DNA of 64,000 bases from Myxococcota bacterium (GTDB lineage: Bacteria > Myxococcota_A > SURF-8), in NCBI GenBank assembly GCA_963674735.2, contig CAXXQS010000001.1:2432001-2496000 (forward strand), written 5' to 3'. Positions 33,864-41,913 of the stretch are shown piece by piece. The notes below the pieces were generated by a model. It had not been told where the DNA came from. It made no database searches and saw only the letters and a list, made by a program, of their open reading frames with translations. Numbering within the stretch: the stretch's first letter is position 1; each line of letters begins with the position of its first letter. The position numbers and the translations under genes were made by a program.

Positions 33864-34595
33864 TTAATCGTCCAAAATGTCAGCGGCCTCATCGTTATCC
33901 GCGGCCTCGGGATCCGGTTTGGGCTGTTTCGCTTCCAAATCCCTAACCAGAGCTTGAATTTTCTGGTGAGCCTCGGCATCCAGCTTAATGAACCGCAACC
34001 CGACACCCGTGCTCAGATCCAGTTTTTCGGCAATCAACGGCTGAATCAAGTGCACGACCTTGGCATCAACGCTGATCGGCTCGCCGGCATCCGGTAGTGT
34101 CAACCGCAACGAAACACGTTCATCCCTGTAAGGCGGCGGCGGCCCTTCGATTTTCAGAAACAGCCCACCCTCCGAGAGATTGTCGGTGTGCAAGTCGCCC
34201 AGTTCCGGCAGGTTGGCCACCTGCACCGGCAAATCGATGGGATAGCGGCGCGAACCGTTGCGGCGCGGTCCATCGTACTTCACCATCTCGACCAACCGAG
34301 CGTGCTCGGGATCGACAGCCAAGTGTTTCAAACCGAAACGGAAAATACCCAGGCTCATCTTTCGACCGTGTACCGGACGCCACCAGCGAACTTCGGAAAG
34401 ATAATGGAATTTCTCTCCTTCAAAGGTGATGACCCGCATCGAAACTTCATCGTTCATGTTGAGGCGGTACCGGGTACGCACCTCCATGCCTTCGTTCGAC
34501 AGGTTGGTCATGTATCCGATCTTCTGTTCACCGTTACAGCGAAGCAAAACCTCGAAACGTTTCTGCCAGCGTGGCGAATCACTGCGCCCGTCCAT
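33864..34595 (-). CDS. Tandem PilZ-domain protein
   Basis: RSDSPR..NLSNEGM and RRNGSRR..DNLSEGGLF (RxxxR, D/NxSxxG), GVGLRF. Confidence 0.8.
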   Translation of the reverse strand: MDGRSDSPRWQKRFEVLLRCNGEQKIGYMTNLSNEGMEVRTRYRLNMNDEVSMRVITFEGEKFHYLSEVRWWRPVHGRKMSLGIFRFGLKHLAVDPEHARLVEMVKYDGPRRNGSRRYPIDLPVQVANLPELGDLHTDNLSEGGLFLKIEGPPPPYRDERVSLRLTLPDAGEPISVDAKVVHLIQPLIAEKLDLSTGVGLRFIKLDAEAHQKIQALVRDLEAKQPKPDPEAADNDEAADILDD

Positions 34596-34754: not shown

Positions 34755-36434
34755 TTGACCCAGCCGTTCAATCGCATTACACTCGCCGAGATGTGGACAC
34801 AACACTTCTCAAACACCGCTCACCGGCCAGCTTGGATCGGGCTGGCGGTCATCGTAATCCTGCTAAATGGCTGGATATTCGGAATCTGGACAGCCACCGT
34901 AAGCGCCGCCACCGCCGCCGCAACCGACTCGCCCGCAGAAGCGGAGGCGCAAAAGCTGGTCACGGCCTGGCCCACCGACCAACCGCCCTTCGTCGATTGG
35001 ACTGTCCCGCTTTCATCTCACGTTGCAGGGGAAATCCGACTGGCGATCACCCATCGAACGACCGGCGAACAACTGCAATTGGTACTGCGAGTCCGGGATG
35101 ACAGCCAGCCCGCCTTCGCACGCTCGCAACTCTACAATATTTTTTACTTCTCCACCGCAAAGTCCGCTCACACCTCCCCCGAAGCGGATCGCCTTTTGCC
35201 GCAGGTGAGTATCTGGCTGAAGAAAGTCGAAACCAACCGCACCGCTCTCTTGCCTTACGATGAAGCTCAACGGCGGGCTCAAGAACAGCGAGAAAAAGAG
35301 GAAGCCCGCCAAAAAGTTGAAGCCGAGCGACAACAACGCCGCGACCGCATCGGCATTCAGCGTCTGGTGGCACCGGGAATAGCAAATCGCTTATCTCCTC
35401 AACGCCTGCGCCCCTTCACCGGTCTGCTCGTGCTTGTGCTTTTCCTCTTCTGCCTGCCGCGCGTTCATCGAGCCTTTAAAGTCGTGCGGGGGCTCGAATT
35501 CACGTACATCACCCGCATCGGCGATCCGGCAGGACCGATTCTCGCCCTGCTCTTCGCCATCCGCTACGGCATTTCCTGGACCGGAGCGACCCCGTCCATC
35601 GGCTTATCCGATCCGGTCGGAGCCTGGCTCACCAGCACCAGCTTATTAGCCGCTCCCCATACTTTTTGGGTCGCCGCCATCATTGCAGGAATCTTGACGG
35701 TCCTCGGCGCTTACATGATCGGGATGACGGCCTACGTCGTGTTCGACGATGACCGGATGGCCGGTTTGTCGGCCCTTCTCTATCTGGCTTGGCGCTTGGT
35801 CCAACCAATCGAGTCCGATCAGATTTCCGCCCTGGTCGCCGACGCCGCATTGAGCGCAGGATGGTTGGCGCTGCAACTTCAGATTTTGAGCCATAAAAAC
35901 ACCCCACGCATGTTGCTTGCGGCTCCCCTCTTCGCTCTGGCCGCCTGGGCCGAACCCGCCTACTGGTCCACCTCGATTTTGGGCTTTGCCGCCCTTCTGA
36001 TAGACCCACGCTTTCGTTCTTCGACGGTTTCGTTTCCCATTGCCTGGCTGTTTCCGATCATTACCCTGCTCATGATCGTTCCAGCGGTCTTGAGAGCAAT
36101 TTTGCCTTTGGGTCTGACAGCTCCGGATATGCTGTTTGGCGGCTGGACCTCTCCCATCTGGCCGATCCTGCACAACCATCCGGAAACGATACTATTCGCC
36201 GCTCTGGCCATTTTCTTCGGAGGGACGGCGATCTATAAAGCCATTCACGCCGAACGGGCCACGGCCGTTCTTTTCGTGCTTTTTTATGGAATCTGTTTGA
36301 TCGGAGCCACCGGCTTGGAGGGCTGGCGTACCGACCATCTCCTGGCCGGTCGCAGCATCGTTTTTCCCTGTTGGCTGATCGCGGCGGGACTGATTTCCAT
36401 CATTCACCGCGAGCCCCAATCCGCCACGACCTGA
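34755..36434 (+). CDS. Hypothetical multi-pass membrane protein (N-terminal extracytoplasmic domain + ~10 TM segments)
   Basis: Long ORF with many hydrophobic segments; start uncertain (TTG 34755 or ATG 34791). Confidence 0.6.
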   Translation: MTQPFNRITLAEMWTQHFSNTAHRPAWIGLAVIVILLNGWIFGIWTATVSAATAAATDSPAEAEAQKLVTAWPTDQPPFVDWTVPLSSHVAGEIRLAITHRTTGEQLQLVLRVRDDSQPAFARSQLYNIFYFSTAKSAHTSPEADRLLPQVSIWLKKVETNRTALLPYDEAQRRAQEQREKEEARQKVEAERQQRRDRIGIQRLVAPGIANRLSPQRLRPFTGLLVLVLFLFCLPRVHRAFKVVRGLEFTYITRIGDPAGPILALLFAIRYGISWTGATPSIGLSDPVGAWLTSTSLLAAPHTFWVAAIIAGILTVLGAYMIGMTAYVVFDDDRMAGLSALLYLAWRLVQPIESDQISALVADAALSAGWLALQLQILSHKNTPRMLLAAPLFALAAWAEPAYWSTSILGFAALLIDPRFRSSTVSFPIAWLFPIITLLMIVPAVLRAILPLGLTAPDMLFGGWTSPIWPILHNHPETILFAALAIFFGGTAIYKAIHAERATAVLFVLFYGICLIGATGLEGWRTDHLLAGRSIVFPCWLIAAGLISIIHREPQSATT

Positions 36435-36549
36435 TTAGCAATCAATGTGGCAATTCGGCAACACCGCGACGTCAAGACGGCGACGCTTCCGCTGATTCGC
36501 TATCCATCCGGATCTACAAGGATTTCTTCTTAGAAAGCCCCCAACTATC

Positions 36550-36582
36550 CGCAAGCTTTTCTCGCTTGCGACAAATTTGTCG
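36550..36582. promoter_or_regulatory. Two adjacent palindromes, candidate enhancer (UAS) sites for a sigma54 activator
   Basis: CGCAAGC-N7-GCTTGCG (36550-36570) and perfect CGACAAATTTGTCG (36569-36582), ~70-100 bp upstream of the sigma54-like box. Confidence 0.45.
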
Positions 36583-36648
36583 GTTTACCCCACCCCCCTT
36601 GTTTTCTCGCAAATACCCCAAGCTGCCGTGAAAACTGAAGAACATGAA

Positions 36649-36665
36649 TTGGCATGATTATTGAA
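36649..36665 (+). promoter_or_regulatory. Sigma54-type promoter for small ORF
   Basis: TTGGCATGATTATTGAA = TGGCA-N6-TTGA, -24/-12 spacing. Confidence 0.55.
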
Positions 36666-36720
36666 GAATAAATACGGTATGAATCGGGATTAACGACTTA
36701 TGTTCCCGATGGAGGTAAGC

Positions 36721-36903
36721 ATGACTCTCACAACCGAACTTGAACGCATGCAACGACGTATCGGCCTAACCGGCGATGTCAAGTGGATGAACTTCTACAG
36801 CCGACATTTTCCTTTACACTACGACAAATATGTCCGAACCTTCACCCATCCTCGCGCCGTCAAACGCGTGTGGTTTTACGGAAATCGCTTAAGTATCAAA
36901 TAG
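36721..36903 (+). CDS. Small basic/aromatic hypothetical protein (60 aa)
   Basis: Strong GGAGG RBS 5 nt before ATG; MTLTTELERMQRRIGLTGDVKWMNFYSRHFPLHYDKYVRTFTHPRAVKRVWFYGNRLSIK. Confidence 0.65.
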   Translation: MTLTTELERMQRRIGLTGDVKWMNFYSRHFPLHYDKYVRTFTHPRAVKRVWFYGNRLSIK

Positions 36904-36912
36904 TTGTGCTTA

Positions 36913-36928
36913 TGGCACGCTTCTTTCA
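36913..36928 (+). promoter_or_regulatory. Second sigma54-type promoter, no downstream CDS
   Basis: TGGCACGCTTCTTTCA = TGGCAC-N5-TTTCA. Confidence 0.5.
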
Positions 36929-36938
36929 ATAGCTTATT

Positions 36939-37060
36939 ACCATCTGCAGGGCCCGTGGCGAGTCCTATTTGGTAAGAAAAAGTTTCGATGGTCTTTCCCT
37001 GCAGTATACCCCGATCTGAAAGGCGCGGGGGGGTCCGAGCCTTTCAGACGGGGTATCTTT
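36939..37060 (+). ncRNA. Candidate structured small RNA (unassigned family)
   Basis: CTGCAGGG/CCCTGCAG stem (36944-37004) then 18-bp stem ATACCCCG-a-TCTGAAAGGC / GCCTTTCAGA-CGGGGTAT (37006-37056) with CTTT tail, directly after sigma54-like box. Confidence 0.45.
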
Positions 37061-37190
37061 GTGTCTAACCAATCGCTCTCATGTTGAATCATTCCATTTT
37101 AGAATACCAAAGCGAGATAGCCTTCGCAAAACCTTCCTCTTTTTGCCTGAACGGTATGGCAGAAAGATCGGATGCGACAGGTGTGAGGAC

Positions 37191-38714
37191 TTATTCCGGG
37201 TAGGCTTTCTGACGGAAATACAGAAAGAGGGTCTGGAAGATGGAGAAGACCGGCACCGCCAACAACGCCCCGAAGAGCCCATAGCCGTATTCCCCGGCCA
37301 CCAAGGCGAACACCACCAGAACCGGATGGATATGAGCCGAGGAACCCATGATTTTGGGATTGAGGATATTCGCTTCGATCAGGTGAATGATGACGATCCA
37401 CACGAGGGCCAAAAAGCCGATCATGAACGATTGCGTCAAGCCGATGGCCACCGCCGGAATCGTCGACAAAATCGTGCCGAAGATGGGAATCAGGGAAAAT
37501 ACTGCCGCAATCACAGCCAAAACGACGGCGTATTTGACACCGATGATCGTCAAACCGATTCCGGTCAGCGTGCCGTTAACTAAGCAGATCATCAACTGCC
37601 CACGAATCACTCCACCCAACCCCCGGTCGATGCCGCGTACAACGTCATCGTATTCCTCGCGGTATTTGGGAGGCGTCAACGAGCGGAAAAACTCTTTGAT
37701 TCTCGGCGTATCGATTAAAATGAACGCCGCAAGCATGAACGTCAAGACCAGCGTCATCAGCGAACCGACGACCATACCGACCACATTGCGCCCGAGAACG
37801 AAGGCATCGGCGACCAGCCTTTCACCGGAACTCAACAGATTGTCCAGCTTCTGCTGAACGCGGGACTGCAAATCGAGCGCCCGTTCGCCGCCGGGATTGG
37901 GTATGGTATCAAGCGGCACCAGTTGCAGCTTATAGCTTCCCTCTCCTTTTTGCTCGACCTCGATCGAATAGTTTTCCAGTTTAGCCGCCAACTGGTCCAA
38001 TAGCGGACCCGCCAACGGATCGTCGGGCACGTCCCCCTCCGGAGCAAACTCCGAACCGGGCTGCAAATCCACCTGCATTTCCTCCACTCCGATGTCCTCC
38101 GGTCCCAAAACGATCGGTCGCTTGGTCGGCAACGGCGAAGGAACTTTCTTGTTAACGGAATCGTCCGGATCTTGATCCGATTCCTCTTCCAAAGGACGCT
38201 TGAGATCCTGGAGAAACGACTGCAAACGGTCATTTAGGTCCGGCACCCAGACCTGCGAAGCCTTTCGGAAAATCGTCGGAACATCGTTGGCCATTTTGGA
38301 GAATTCCGAAGCGAAACGCGGCAGCACCAGAAGTGAGAAAACATAAACCCCGATGAGCAAAATGATGTAGATCAGAATGACCGAAATCCAACGCGGCAGA
38401 CGCATCTTTTTTATCCGCCACGCCGACATCCGATCCACCAGCGGAGACACAACGTAGGCGACGACCACCGCCAGAATGAACGGCAGCAGAATGCCGCGAA
38501 CCGCATAGAGCACAATGAGGAAGAAGAGGATGCTCCCCATCCACAAAAAACGCCGTCCCCACTTCCGCACCGCGCTGACCATCCCCAGTGGGTCGGGTTG
38601 CGCGTCGCTCGTTTCGAGTGGAGCTCGCACCTCCGCCGTTTGTACGTCGGGTTCATCGACGGACGGCGTAGACGAGGGCGCTTTCGACGGATTTTCGGGG
38701 TTATCTGTACTCAT
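37191..38714 (-). CDS. AI-2E family transporter with large soluble insertion
   Basis: PFILAVVVAYVVSPLVD, GVIRGQLMICLVNG, SLIPIFG, EANILNPKIMG, IHPVLVVFAL, GALLAVP; start overlaps carB stop. Confidence 0.88.
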   Translation of the reverse strand: MSTDNPENPSKAPSSTPSVDEPDVQTAEVRAPLETSDAQPDPLGMVSAVRKWGRRFLWMGSILFFLIVLYAVRGILLPFILAVVVAYVVSPLVDRMSAWRIKKMRLPRWISVILIYIILLIGVYVFSLLVLPRFASEFSKMANDVPTIFRKASQVWVPDLNDRLQSFLQDLKRPLEEESDQDPDDSVNKKVPSPLPTKRPIVLGPEDIGVEEMQVDLQPGSEFAPEGDVPDDPLAGPLLDQLAAKLENYSIEVEQKGEGSYKLQLVPLDTIPNPGGERALDLQSRVQQKLDNLLSSGERLVADAFVLGRNVVGMVVGSLMTLVLTFMLAAFILIDTPRIKEFFRSLTPPKYREEYDDVVRGIDRGLGGVIRGQLMICLVNGTLTGIGLTIIGVKYAVVLAVIAAVFSLIPIFGTILSTIPAVAIGLTQSFMIGFLALVWIVIIHLIEANILNPKIMGSSAHIHPVLVVFALVAGEYGYGLFGALLAVPVFSIFQTLFLYFRQKAYPE

Positions 38715-41700
38715 CCCAGGCAAGAACCTCCAGCTCCGTGCCTTGCGTGCGCACCAATGAAAGTACCACCAGCTCGGCCAGCTGCAAATTGGTAAACAAC
38801 GGAATGCCCATATCCACCGCCGTGCGACGGATCGCATAACCGTCCTGGTTTTCCTCGGCGCTGTATTCCTTGGGGATATTGATCACCAGGTCGATCTTGC
38901 CGTTGGTCAAATACTCCGTGCAGCTGGGCGATTTTTGATCCCGTTCTTTGTACAACATCTCCACCGGGATGTCACGCTCTTTCAAAAACGCGTAGGTGCC
39001 CGCCGTCGCATAAAGCGGAAGTCCGAGTTTGAGCAGAAGATTCAACCCATCAACGAAGTCCAGCTTGTCGCGTTCACGTCCGATCGACACCAACACACCG
39101 GTTTTCGGATAGCGGAAGCCGGTTGACAACAGCGACTTGAGCAGGGCCTCTTCCGTATCGCGGCCGAAACACGCCACTTCACCAGTGCTGGCCATTTCAA
39201 CTCCCAAAGTCGGATCAGCCCCGGTAAGGCGCGAGAACGAAAACTGCGAAGCCTTCACACCGAGATAGTCCAAATCGATGGAATCCACTTTTACCGGCCG
39301 TTTCTTGCCCAGCATGCGCTCGGTCGCGACCCGAATGAAGTTTTCTTTCGTCACTTTGGACACGAAGGGGAAGCTGCGCGAAGCGCGCAGATTGCACTCG
39401 ATCACCTTGACCATATTGTTGCGGGCCAGGAATTGAATATTGAAGGGTCCTGTAATTTCAAGCTCTTTCGCGATCTTAGCGGCGATTTGCTTGATCTTGC
39501 GGAAGGTGCGCAGATAGATTTTCTGAGGTGGCAACATCAGCGTGGCATCACCGGAATGCACCCCGGCCTTTTCGACGTGCTCACTGACGGCGTAGGCCAC
39601 CAGTTCCCCGGCATCCGCCACCGCGTCGATTTCGATCTCCTTGCTGTCCACCTCGTATTTGCTCATCACCACCGGATATTCAGGACTGACGCTGGTGGCT
39701 TTTTTGAGGTAATTGTCCAACTGGCTTTCATCGTAAGCGACACACATGGCCGCCCCCGACAGCACATAGGATGGCCGCACCAACACCGGGAAACCGATGC
39801 GTTTGGCGACATCCTGCAGATTGTCGATGTCGGTCATTTCCGCCCAGAGCGGCTGATCGACCCCGAGGTCATCGCATAACTGTGAAAATTTGTGCCGATC
39901 CTCCGCCCGGTCGATATTGGCGGCGCTGGTGCCCATGATGGTGACGCCATTTTGCGCCAATTTCATGGCCATGTTGTTGGGAACCTGCCCTCCCACCGAG
40001 ACGATCAAGCCTTGGGGGCTTTCTTTTTCCCACAAGTCGAGGACGGTTTCGAGGCTGATCTCGTCGAAATACAGTCGGTCGCAGACATCGTAATCGGTTG
40101 AAACGGTTTCGGGATTGTGGTTGAGCAGAATCGTTTCGTAACCCAGTTCACGACAGGTGTTGACGGCGTTGACGCAGCACCAGTCGAACTCGACCGATGA
40201 TCCGATTCGATAGGCTCCCGATCCCAATACCACCATCTTCTGCCGCACCGTCGCAGTGACATCGTCGTCGATACCATGATAGGTGAAATACAAATAGTTG
40301 GTTTCAGCCGGGTATTCGGCGGCCAAGGTATCGATCTGCTTGACTCGGGGAACAATGCCCTGCTCTTTGCGATAAGCCCGCACCGTCATGTCGTCCGTTT
40401 TGGCCGACCGGGCGATCTGGCGATCGGAAAAACCACCCTGTTTCGCCTTATTCAGCAACGATTTATCGTAAGGCCATTGAGCGGCCTGCATAGCTTTTTC
40501 AATCAGGGCCAGATTTTGAACTTTCTGCAAAAACCAGGGAGTAATGAAACTCAGTTCAGCAATTTCCTCAACGGAAAAGCCCCGGCGAAAGCCTTCCATG
40601 ACGGCAAAGACGCGCTTGGGCGATGGAACGGCGATCTTGTCGCGCAGGGTTTTGTCATCCAAACGACCGTATTCCATCGGCTCGAAGGCCAGTCCTTCGA
40701 CGCCGATCTGCAGCATACGCAACGCTTTTTGCAGAACTTCCTCGAAGCTGCGCCCGATGGCCATCACCTCGCCGACCGATTTCATCTCCGAGCTGAGTTG
40801 CTGGCGCACCCGCTGGAATTTTTCGAGATCCCAACGCGGAATTTTGAGGACGAGATAATCGAGCGCGGGTTCGAAAAAGGCCGCCGTGCGTCGCGTGATG
40901 ACGTTGGCCAAGTCCACCAGGGTATAACCCAACGCCAGCTTCGCCGCGATGTAGGCCAGCGGATAGCCGGTGGCTTTGGACGCCAGCGCCGAAGAACGCG
41001 ACAACCGGGCGTTGACTTCGATAACCCGGTAATCGCCCGTTTGGGGACAAAGCGCAAACTGGATGTTGCACTCACCGATGATGCCGATCCGGCGAATGGC
41101 TTTGATCGATAACTCGCGCAGGAAATGGTAGTCGCGATTATCGAGCGTCTGACTGGGGGCCACCACGATGGACTCGCCGGTATGCACGCCCAGCGGATCC
41201 ATGTTTTCCATGTTGCAGACGGTCACGCAGTTGTCGCGGACGTCGCGCACGACCTCGTATTCGATCTCTTTCCAACCTTCGAGGTATTCCTCCACCAGCA
41301 CCTGCGGAATCCCCGCGAAGGCTTTGGGCAATACGGCTTCCAGATCTTCGTCGTCGCGCACGATAGCCGAGCCTTTGCCGCCCAAAGAGAAAGCACCCCG
41401 CAGAATCAAGGGATAGCCGAGAATCTTGACGGCTTCCCGCGCCTGTTTGGGACCGTTGCAGGCCACGGAGCGGGCGGTCTTGATGTTGATCTCGTTTAGC
41501 ACATCGATAAAGAGCGCGCGATCCTCCGTTTCGAGAATGGATTGCACCGGGGTGCCCAAAACGCGCACCTGATACTTCTCGAAAACACCGCTTTTAAACA
41601 GCGCCACGCCGCAATTGAGGGCGGTCTGACCGCCGAAACTCAACAGAATGGCGTCCACCTTCTCTTTTACGATTACCCGTTCCACCATGTCGGGGGTGAC

Positions 41701-41913
41701 CGGCAAAAAATACACCCGATCGGCCATGCCTTCGCTGGTTTGGATGGTCGCGATGTTGGGATTCACCAACACCGTGTGGATGCCTTCCTCGCGCATGGCT
41801 TTGATGGCTTGGGAGCCGGAATAATCGAACTCTCCGGCCTCGCCGATCTTGAGGGCGCCGGAGCCGAGAATTAAAACTTTACTAGGCTTGTGAGGTAGAA
41901 AATTTCCAAACAT
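38701..41913 (-). CDS. carB: Carbamoyl-phosphate synthase large subunit
   Basis: LGSGALKIGEAGEFDYSGSQA, HTGESIVVAPSQTL, EVNARLSRSSALASKATGYP, NPETVSTDYD, VRPSYVLSGAAM, MGS domain. Confidence 0.98.
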   Translation of the reverse strand: MFGNFLPHKPSKVLILGSGALKIGEAGEFDYSGSQAIKAMREEGIHTVLVNPNIATIQTSEGMADRVYFLPVTPDMVERVIVKEKVDAILLSFGGQTALNCGVALFKSGVFEKYQVRVLGTPVQSILETEDRALFIDVLNEINIKTARSVACNGPKQAREAVKILGYPLILRGAFSLGGKGSAIVRDDEDLEAVLPKAFAGIPQVLVEEYLEGWKEIEYEVVRDVRDNCVTVCNMENMDPLGVHTGESIVVAPSQTLDNRDYHFLRELSIKAIRRIGIIGECNIQFALCPQTGDYRVIEVNARLSRSSALASKATGYPLAYIAAKLALGYTLVDLANVITRRTAAFFEPALDYLVLKIPRWDLEKFQRVRQQLSSEMKSVGEVMAIGRSFEEVLQKALRMLQIGVEGLAFEPMEYGRLDDKTLRDKIAVPSPKRVFAVMEGFRRGFSVEEIAELSFITPWFLQKVQNLALIEKAMQAAQWPYDKSLLNKAKQGGFSDRQIARSAKTDDMTVRAYRKEQGIVPRVKQIDTLAAEYPAETNYLYFTYHGIDDDVTATVRQKMVVLGSGAYRIGSSVEFDWCCVNAVNTCRELGYETILLNHNPETVSTDYDVCDRLYFDEISLETVLDLWEKESPQGLIVSVGGQVPNNMAMKLAQNGVTIMGTSAANIDRAEDRHKFSQLCDDLGVDQPLWAEMTDIDNLQDVAKRIGFPVLVRPSYVLSGAAMCVAYDESQLDNYLKKATSVSPEYPVVMSKYEVDSKEIEIDAVADAGELVAYAVSEHVEKAGVHSGDATLMLPPQKIYLRTFRKIKQIAAKIAKELEITGPFNIQFLARNNMVKVIECNLRASRSFPFVSKVTKENFIRVATERMLGKKRPVKVDSIDLDYLGVKASQFSFSRLTGADPTLGVEMASTGEVACFGRDTEEALLKSLLSTGFRYPKTGVLVSIGRERDKLDFVDGLNLLLKLGLPLYATAGTYAFLKERDIPVEMLYKERDQKSPSCTEYLTNGKIDLVINIPKEYSAEENQDGYAIRRTAVDMGIPLFTNLQLAELVVLSLVRTQGTELEVLAWDEYR

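Follow-up and report, generated by a model that had tools for sequence, protein, structure and literature searches.

A probable structured small RNA as the second unit of a predicted tandem sigma54-type module in one class of Myxococcota

Small RNAs (sRNAs) transcribed in a sigma54-dependent manner are an established kind of bacterial regulator, with Qrr, GlmY, CrcZ and Pxr as examples. The Qrr RNAs of Vibrio depend on LuxO and sigma54 and also on Hfq, occur in several copies, and combine an upstream activator site with a long invariant stretch, which is their functional surface, and a rho-independent terminator. GlmY and CrcZ/CrcY likewise have a sigma54 promoter with an activator site, and act by protein binding and not by pairing. 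A further arrangement is seen in MicL and DapZ, sRNAs transcribed from a promoter of their own that lies within an upstream coding gene or at its end, with a terminator in common with the mRNA. Within the Myxococcota, Pxr is the only sigma54-linked sRNA known to us or met in a literature search of limited scope, and to our knowledge myxobacteria are without Hfq. Here we describe a locus in a 64,000-nt stretch of a Myxococcota genome (assembly GCA_963674735.2, contig CAXXQS010000001.1, positions 2,432,001 to 2,496,000; this whole stretch is called the window, and its numbering is used below), where the gene for a 60-aa basic protein is followed by a second element. Judged by sequence comparison, this element is likely to be an independent gene for a structured sRNA of ~120 nt, found in one small class of Myxococcota, and to make up, with the protein gene, a sigma54 module of two promoters in which it is the second unit.

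As described in two reports, Pxr is a 108-nt RNA reported only from the Cystobacterineae, the gene of which has nla19, an activator gene, on one side and an NADH dehydrogenase gene on the other, with three stem-loops of which SL1 and SL2 are conserved, a 3' stem needed for accumulation, and a predicted sigma54 promoter with an enhancer site, in a host without hfq (PMC5568312, PMC5684412). Set beside this description, the element in the window is similar in its occurrence in the Myxococcota, its size of ~100-120 nt, its predicted sigma54 promoter and enhancer site, its 3' stem and the absence of a detected Hfq, whereas it differs in belonging to another class, in having no nla19-type activator or NADH dehydrogenase neighbour, and in having a small protein gene directly upstream. 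With Qrr it shares its shortness, a sigma54-type promoter with an upstream activator site, an invariant stretch and a terminator, but it is present in a single copy, in a genome in which no Hfq was found, and has no Rfam match. Unlike GlmY and CrcZ/CrcY, it contains no repeated protein-binding motifs and no GGA motif, and has no Rfam match. Like MicL and DapZ, its predicted regulatory DNA lies within the preceding open reading frame (ORF) and its terminator would be shared with the mRNA, but what is embedded here, on the D-K-x-V codons of the 60-aa protein, is an enhancer-type palindrome, and promoters of the sigma54 type precede both the sRNA and the upstream gene.

Homologs of the element were sought in 10 species genomes of the class (given below by our G numbers) and in 141 other Myxococcota genomes, using a covariance model (R1) built from six sequences, and were found in seven of the 10 class genomes and on the metagenome contig L018. 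The predicted sRNA gene of the window (~124 nt, 36939..37063, both ends inferred; covariance-model match 36940-37063) lies on the + strand, as do all features below unless stated otherwise. A 141-nt stretch folds at -56.5 kcal/mol compared with -41.7 +/- 3.9 kcal/mol for shuffled sequences (n=200; z = -3.84), none of the 200 being as good, and all eight homologs fold as a domain closed by a stem, P1, plus a hairpin with a stem of 11-18 bp. In the window the 8 bp of P1 (5' strand CTGCAGGG, i.e. CUGCAGGG, 36944..36951; 3' strand CCCTGCAG, i.e. CCCUGCAG, 36997..37004) enclose a 45-nt loop, and two bases on follows a long terminator-like hairpin (37006..37056), the outer stem of which has 18 pairs and one bulge, with four further apical pairs. 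The 8-bp closing stem and the 18-bp hairpin with a short U tail (CUUUGUGU, 37057..37064, which is weak in the window) had both been noted in an earlier examination of this DNA alone (the sequence-only reading), and both hold.

RNAalifold, applied to a MAFFT alignment of six sequences, found compensatory pairs in both P1 and the terminator stem. The compensatory variants of P1 are CUACAGGG/CCCUGUAG in G004 and CUGCGGGG/CCUCGCAG in G009 and G006, and in G008 the stem has been replaced altogether (CUAACGGUGA/UCACCGUUAG) and is fully paired; the loop of this copy still contains CCCGUGGCG-GUC, and its terminal hairpin still carries GGGGGG in its own loop. Over the eight sequences both sides have changed in 7/11 P1 pairs and 85.9% of cells are paired, values reached by none of 500 shuffles, and partners slid along the alignment are 24-60% paired. 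These data point to a conserved structured RNA, the base pairs of which are kept through compensatory changes. Four G-U pairs in P1 would read A-C on the opposite strand, and because these pairs, the T-runs and the promoter-like box all point the same way, the sRNA is assigned to the + strand. The sequence of the hairpin stem varies among the genomes and its structure is retained, with U-runs of 4-9 U in five of the eight homologs (G003, G001, G004, G009 and L018) and weaker ones in the window, G006 and G008, so the hairpin has the pattern of a predicted intrinsic terminator, a GC-rich stem and a U-run.

The loop of P1 contains an invariant 17-nt segment (GGGCCCGUGGCGAGUCC, 36949..36965) that is identical in seven of the eight homologs and reads CCCGUGGCGGGUC in G008, and that is a candidate seed or protein-binding surface. 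It is followed by an A-rich linker (36968..36986), variable in both length and sequence across the homologs, and by the semi-conserved GAUGGUCU (36987..36994), the GAUGG of which has two possible and mutually exclusive partners, CCGU and GAG.CC of the invariant segment; a small CCCG-UGG-CGRG hairpin is also available. The 46-nt P1 domain is identical between G009 and G006, the adjacent small ORFs of which differ at 8/33 synonymous third positions, and hence the domain is under stronger constraint than silent sites. One further proposal of the sequence-only reading, an alternative pairing between ACCATC (36939-36944) and GATGGT (36987-36992), fared less well: both motifs are present, but the seven other homologs do not keep the 5' partner, and the pairing is probably incidental. 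The same reading had stated that no coding sequence with a ribosome binding site follows the promoter-like box, and indeed the only + strand ORF 3' of it encodes 26 aa (36988-37068), has no Shine-Dalgarno (SD) sequence, and lacks its ATG in G009 and G006. No conserved ORF was present within the element in the eight homologs, which argues that it is not protein coding.

With regard to distribution, the copies in G003, G001, G004, G009 and G006 were found by both BLAST and R1 (82-128 bits), that of G008 was reached via the small protein and scored 31.2 bits (E = 1e-6) with R1 when filters were off, and contig L018 holds the whole module (R1, 71 bits). There was no sRNA match in G002 and G005 (79-86% complete) or in G007 (95% complete), and R1 had no match in the 141 Myxococcota genomes of other classes. 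A pattern combining the box with the invariant core gave nine matches outside the class in 401 Myxococcota genomes, versus five in a reversed control, and none of the nine fits R1 at E <= 1, while a 24-nt pattern retrieved four records from genome contigs, apparently already known carriers, and one contig from metagenome contigs. Rfam gave no match at gathering score in the 64-kb window, and for 36400-37300 only a chance microRNA match (E = 2); no description of such an RNA was found in the literature on Myxococcota small RNAs and sigma54, in a search of limited scope. The element is single copy in its own 5.26-Mb genome by both BLAST and covariance model, and the hairpin is thus not a dispersed repeat, one of the objections that the sequence-only reading had foreseen; another, that the hairpin is a mere terminator, is countered by the G run in its apical part (7 G in the window, 37027..37033), which has 6-7 G in all eight homologs, and a third, a lack of covariation, by the changes seen in P1. 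The genes 3' of the sRNA differ from genome to genome, the one that follows in the window being convergent, so the sRNA is not a cis-leader.

Promoters of sigma54 have the consensus TGGCACG-N4-TTGCW, with transcription starting ~12 nt after the C of the -12 element. The box that precedes the sRNA element (box 2, TGGCACGCTTCTTTCA, 36913..36928) matches this consensus at all specified positions except for a G->T change at -13, so that its -12 element has TC instead of GC, and is the predicted sRNA promoter. Its presence was described correctly in the sequence-only reading, but it starts 9 nt, not 10 nt, past the stop codon of the small ORF, and the sRNA element begins ~11 nt past the box. The -24 element TGGCAYG, with its GG, is found in all eight loci, and the box as a whole reads TGGCAYG-N4-TTTC in seven loci and TGGCACG-N4-TGGC, with GC at -12, in G008. 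Its spacing is constant in all eight, with 47-49 nt from the start of the box to the end of CCCGTGGCG (= CCCGUGGCG), and the intervening bases vary. By the usual sigma54 geometry, transcription of the sRNA would start near 36939, four bases before the stem. The predicted promoter of the small ORF (box 1, TGGCATGATTATTGAA, 36650..36665) has homologs at the equivalent position in G003, G001, G009, G006, G008 and L018, with GC at -12 in G009, G006, G001 and G008. A 19-nt direct repeat (36624-36642 / 36650-36668, 74% identical) includes a degenerate version of box 1 (TGCCGTGAAAACTGAAGAA), which lies 26 nt before box 1 itself. No sigma70-like site was seen in 36300-37400.

By itself box 2 would make a weak case for a sigma54 promoter; what decides the matter is a palindrome, GACA-N4-TGTC, which precedes both boxes. 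Upstream of box 2 it is found at 89-91 nt in all eight loci, with one mismatch in G008; in the window this copy (GACAAATATGTC, 36823..36834) lies within the small ORF, 90 nt from box 2, and is the putative enhancer site of the sRNA. Upstream of box 1 there is a second copy at 77-81 nt in four loci (the window, G003, G001 and L018), which in the window is GACAAATTTGTC (36570..36581), with box 1 80 nt further on, a putative site for the enhancer-binding protein of the small-ORF promoter. The own genome contains 68 such palindromes, four of which have a sigma54-like box 76-98 nt downstream: two belong to the sRNA locus, a third comes just behind an activator gene and the fourth precedes the gene of a secreted protein. 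In all 10 genomes of the class together, the combination of palindrome and sigma54 box occurred 28 times versus four for the reversed control, and 14 of the 17 pairs outside the sRNA and small ORF carry TTGC or CTGC, the canonical forms, at -12 (26 of the 28 pairs were inspected, the other two being G005 loci at contig starts, and the pattern allowed 16 tetramers at -12, of which two are canonical). Given both the excess over the control and the preponderance of canonical -12 elements, the palindrome marks genuine sigma54 promoters, with the sRNA box among its clients.

The genes needed for such regulation are encoded as well, with rpoN present once in the own genome (one Sigma54_DBD gene, 216.6 bits) together with 21 strong enhancer-binding-protein genes (Sigma54_activat, E <= 6.7e-63), none of which is in the window (no Sigma54_activat match in C1:2432001-2496000). 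Together with the box at constant spacing in 8/8 loci and the palindrome of canonical promoters, this lends comparative support to the sigma54 assignment of the sequence-only reading, and the sRNA and the small ORF are probably two tandem sigma54 units under one common enhancer-binding protein. A weak candidate for that activator is a protein of FHA type (gene C2:1089888-1091672, after a Ser/Thr kinase gene), since 4 nt after its stop codon there is a palindrome with a canonical box (TGGCACCGTTTTTGCT; C2:1091676-1091790, L087), followed by lipoprotein-like genes. This arrangement is not conserved, as the gene is not beside palindrome promoters in the relatives, and counterparts 62-77% identical are present in all 10 genomes, including G007, which has neither the sRNA nor palindrome promoters. 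Another palindrome promoter of the own genome (C2:1903654-1903745, L091; box TGGCATGGTTCTTTCA at C2:1903730) has TTTC at -12, as in the sRNA promoter, and precedes a gene for a 284-aa protein with a signal-peptide-like N-terminus.

The first unit of the predicted module is the small ORF itself (36721..36903), with GGAGG 6 nt before its ATG and a TAG stop codon at 36901-36903. Its 60-aa product has a pI of 10.7 and 10 aromatic residues, and belongs to an orphan family that is aromatic-rich, with pI values of 9.5-11.5. An SD sequence is present in every locus, the reading frame is retained at 24-60% identity, and the eight differing sites in 33 codons between G009 and G006 are all synonymous third positions, from which it follows that the ORF is real and under purifying selection. 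No relatives were found in Pfam, NCBIfam, PADLOC or the PDB (best PDB E = 0.16), there was no usable Atlas match, and no hydrophobic helix was detected; the family comprised seven proteins in 5.8 billion, and eight clusters at E <= 1e-10 among 1.84 billion representatives. Pairing of the RNA with the small protein, as the sequence-only reading had it, is real in seven of the eight loci, in which the sRNA adjoins the ORF. Every strong match to the small protein has the sRNA next to it, and the three weak matches outside the class (E = 5e-4 to 3e-3) have none beside them.

The palindrome upstream of box 2 coincides with the D-K-x-V codons of YDKxV, which is the most conserved motif of the protein, and a 29-nt segment of the ORF that overlaps it (TTTCCTTTACACTACGACAAAnnTGTCCG, 36806-36834; counterparts in L002-L006, L018 and L025) is 93% identical between families, silent positions included. 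Coding and DNA-site constraints thus seem to share the bases of this segment, and part of the conservation of the protein may be imposed by the DNA site. In G004 (L004/L009) the small ORF is missing or decayed, yet the palindrome, the box and the sRNA are all retained, and since G004 keeps the sRNA in this way, the sRNA unit is independent of the protein gene in cis. Remnants of the small ORF can still be aligned in G004 (CTCTTGACACTGCGACACGATTGTCAG), ~90-260 nt upstream of the sRNA, and this locus has an extra palindrome (GACAAATCTGTC) 186 nt before the box.

Based on this comparison, we infer that the sRNA is produced, that it requires rpoN and an activator, that its ends are those given above, and how it would act. 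A search of sequencing runs listed three, all from one study, that contain this DNA, and no RNA run. An enhancer-binding protein would bind GACA-N4-TGTC ~80-90 bp upstream of each -24/-12 box and, once activated, would drive sigma54-RNA polymerase at box 1, giving the mRNA of the 60-aa basic protein. As no terminator separates the ORF stop codon from the element (two weak scan matches were not above shuffles), read-through of this mRNA into the sRNA is expected, whereas box 2 would drive the sRNA alone, from a start near 36939 to an end at the hairpin (37006-37056). In the folded sRNA, P1 would present the invariant 17-nt segment, followed by the terminator hairpin with its conserved G-run loop, and the RNA would act in trans via the invariant segment, by base pairing or by protein binding.

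The same lack of an intervening terminator could be taken to mean that the element is only the 3' untranslated region and terminator of the small-protein mRNA, that box 2 is no promoter, and that the structure serves stability or termination. The non-canonical -12 element in seven of the eight copies and the position of the sRNA behind the ORF in as many loci would fit this explanation too. It has difficulty, however, with G004, where palindrome, box and sRNA persist without the ORF, with the conservation of the box at a fixed distance from P1 when its flanks are not conserved, and with the palindrome, which is common to canonical sigma54 promoters and stands at its 89-91 nt in all eight loci. 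The invariant 17-nt loop also exceeds what a terminator needs, and we consider this explanation unlikely, although it fares better than the other alternatives considered below.

For an independent sRNA, the co-regulated small basic protein would be the most obvious candidate partner. No Hfq and no ProQ/FinO were found in the own genome (94% complete), and the sRNA has no GGA motif despite the presence of CsrA, which is what makes the basic protein the natural candidate; the lack of GGA also makes a role of the sRNA as a CsrA sponge unlikely, although CsrA is encoded. One could go further and regard the two as a dedicated ribonucleoprotein, in which the 60-aa protein would serve its cognate sRNA as a lineage-specific chaperone or adaptor where Hfq and ProQ are lacking, both made under one joint sigma54 activator whose second site is built into the most conserved codons. 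We put this forward tentatively, as a speculation that may well prove wrong; if true, coding and enhancer functions would constrain the same 12 bp.

With regard to base pairing, exact complements of at least 11 nt to the whole sRNA in the own genome included two 12-mers to the invariant core. One of these (C2:1638240-1638251, L056) precedes the ATG of a gene for 166 aa by 19 nt, and the product of that gene appears Mut7-C-like by eye. The other, at C2:576175, does not coincide with a genuine gene start. The core 12-mer is also found in the 5' regions of a secreted protein gene (L047, G003) and of a gene for a Cys-rich lipoprotein (L055, G001), with an overall count near chance level. Complements of k = 10 upstream of genes were found for 14 genes, whereas three controls gave 13, 4 and 5 genes and 30 shuffles gave 10.8 +/- 6.3, and the 11-mer of the G008 variant had 10 matches versus four in its control, the nine outside the sRNA gene all being in apparent coding sequence. 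For these reasons we name no target.

These recurrences of the core raise the alternative that it is a DNA-level protein-binding site, i.e. an operator, with the RNA structure being secondary. The 12-mer GACTCGCCACGG is found outside the sRNA gene six times in the 10 class genomes; three of these are intergenic and 5' of unrelated genes (G000, G003 and G001), two of them just downstream of sequences that resemble -35/-10 elements by eye, and all three matches end at the same 12-13 bases, on the strand opposite to that of the sRNA. Six extra matches in 10 genomes are close to the ~0.6 per genome expected by chance, however, and the own genome shows no enrichment. A DNA site would also not account for the compensatory changes and G-U asymmetry of P1, nor for a terminator at a fixed distance, which together make an operator very improbable as the explanation of the core.

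Distant homology to the myxobacterial developmental sRNA Pxr would account for the common phylum, the similar size, the predicted sigma54 promoter and a multi-stem-loop fold that ends in a terminator-like structure (PMC5568312, PMC5684412), but in our view there is next to no chance of it. None of the three Pxr features that were compared, i.e. gene neighbours, three stem-loops and taxonomic range, is found here: the neighbours are the 60-aa ORF and the genes for a 559-aa membrane protein and an AI-2E transporter, with no activator gene in the window, the fold is one closed domain and one hairpin, and R1 had its matches within the class and none in the 141 other genomes, a distinction drawn from the description of Pxr and not from an alignment. 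Just as implausible is a toxin-antitoxin-like pair of toxic small protein and RNA antitoxin, an option raised by the sequence-only reading that found no support beyond the adjacency of the two genes: they are on the same strand with no antisense overlap (as in type I) and no tandem RNA repeats (as in type III), the protein has no hydrophobic helix and no family in PADLOC, Pfam or NCBIfam, G004 keeps the sRNA alone, and a common activator-type site would lead to both units being made together.

Several observations weigh against the interpretation of the locus as an sRNA gene with its own sigma54 promoter and a protein partner. The -12 element of box 2 is non-canonical for GC in seven of the eight copies, and strict TGGCAY-N5-TTGC sites are barely above chance in the own genome (27 vs ~20 expected). 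The set is shallow, with eight sequences from one class, and the alignment behind the P1 pair counts was fitted to the covariance model, which favours structure, although the raw sequences agree. The pairings in the interior of the P1 loop are indistinguishable because the conserved columns never vary, the invariance of the core might in principle be due to a site at the DNA level, and the hairpin of the window, with its weak U-tail, went uncalled in a simple scan for terminators. Complementary sites are not enriched upstream of 3787 crude gene calls in the own genome and, since the G008 variant matches only in coding regions as well, base pairing as the mode of action finds no statistical support. 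The AlphaFold2 model of the 60-aa protein is poor (pLDDT 46.5), with no confident fold, and the case for the protein as partner thus comes down to adjacency, shared regulation and basic charge.

If the sRNA gene is as we propose, the Myxococcota would have a second, unrelated family of sigma54-type sRNAs, in a deep uncultured class, and the wiring of sRNAs to enhancer-binding proteins would be broader in this phylum. For comparative work the locus is also a clear example of a coding sequence that harbours an enhancer site and of a small regulon whose promoters, 4-6 per genome in the family of the window, are marked by a single palindrome, and it may supply a new small RNA-binding protein. The practical value is limited for now, as all carriers are metagenome-assembled genomes.

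The locus is flanked on one side by a gene for a protein with two PilZ domains (33864-34595, - strand) and by the upstream neighbour, a gene for a polytopic membrane protein of 559 aa that belongs to no known family (34755-36434, + strand). On the other side are the convergent gene for the AI-2E family transporter (37191-38837, - strand), the listed start of which is probably too far upstream because it overlaps the next gene, and that next gene, for a protein resembling the large subunit of carbamoyl-phosphate synthase (38701-41913, - strand). None of these four neighbours is kept beside the sRNA in the relatives.

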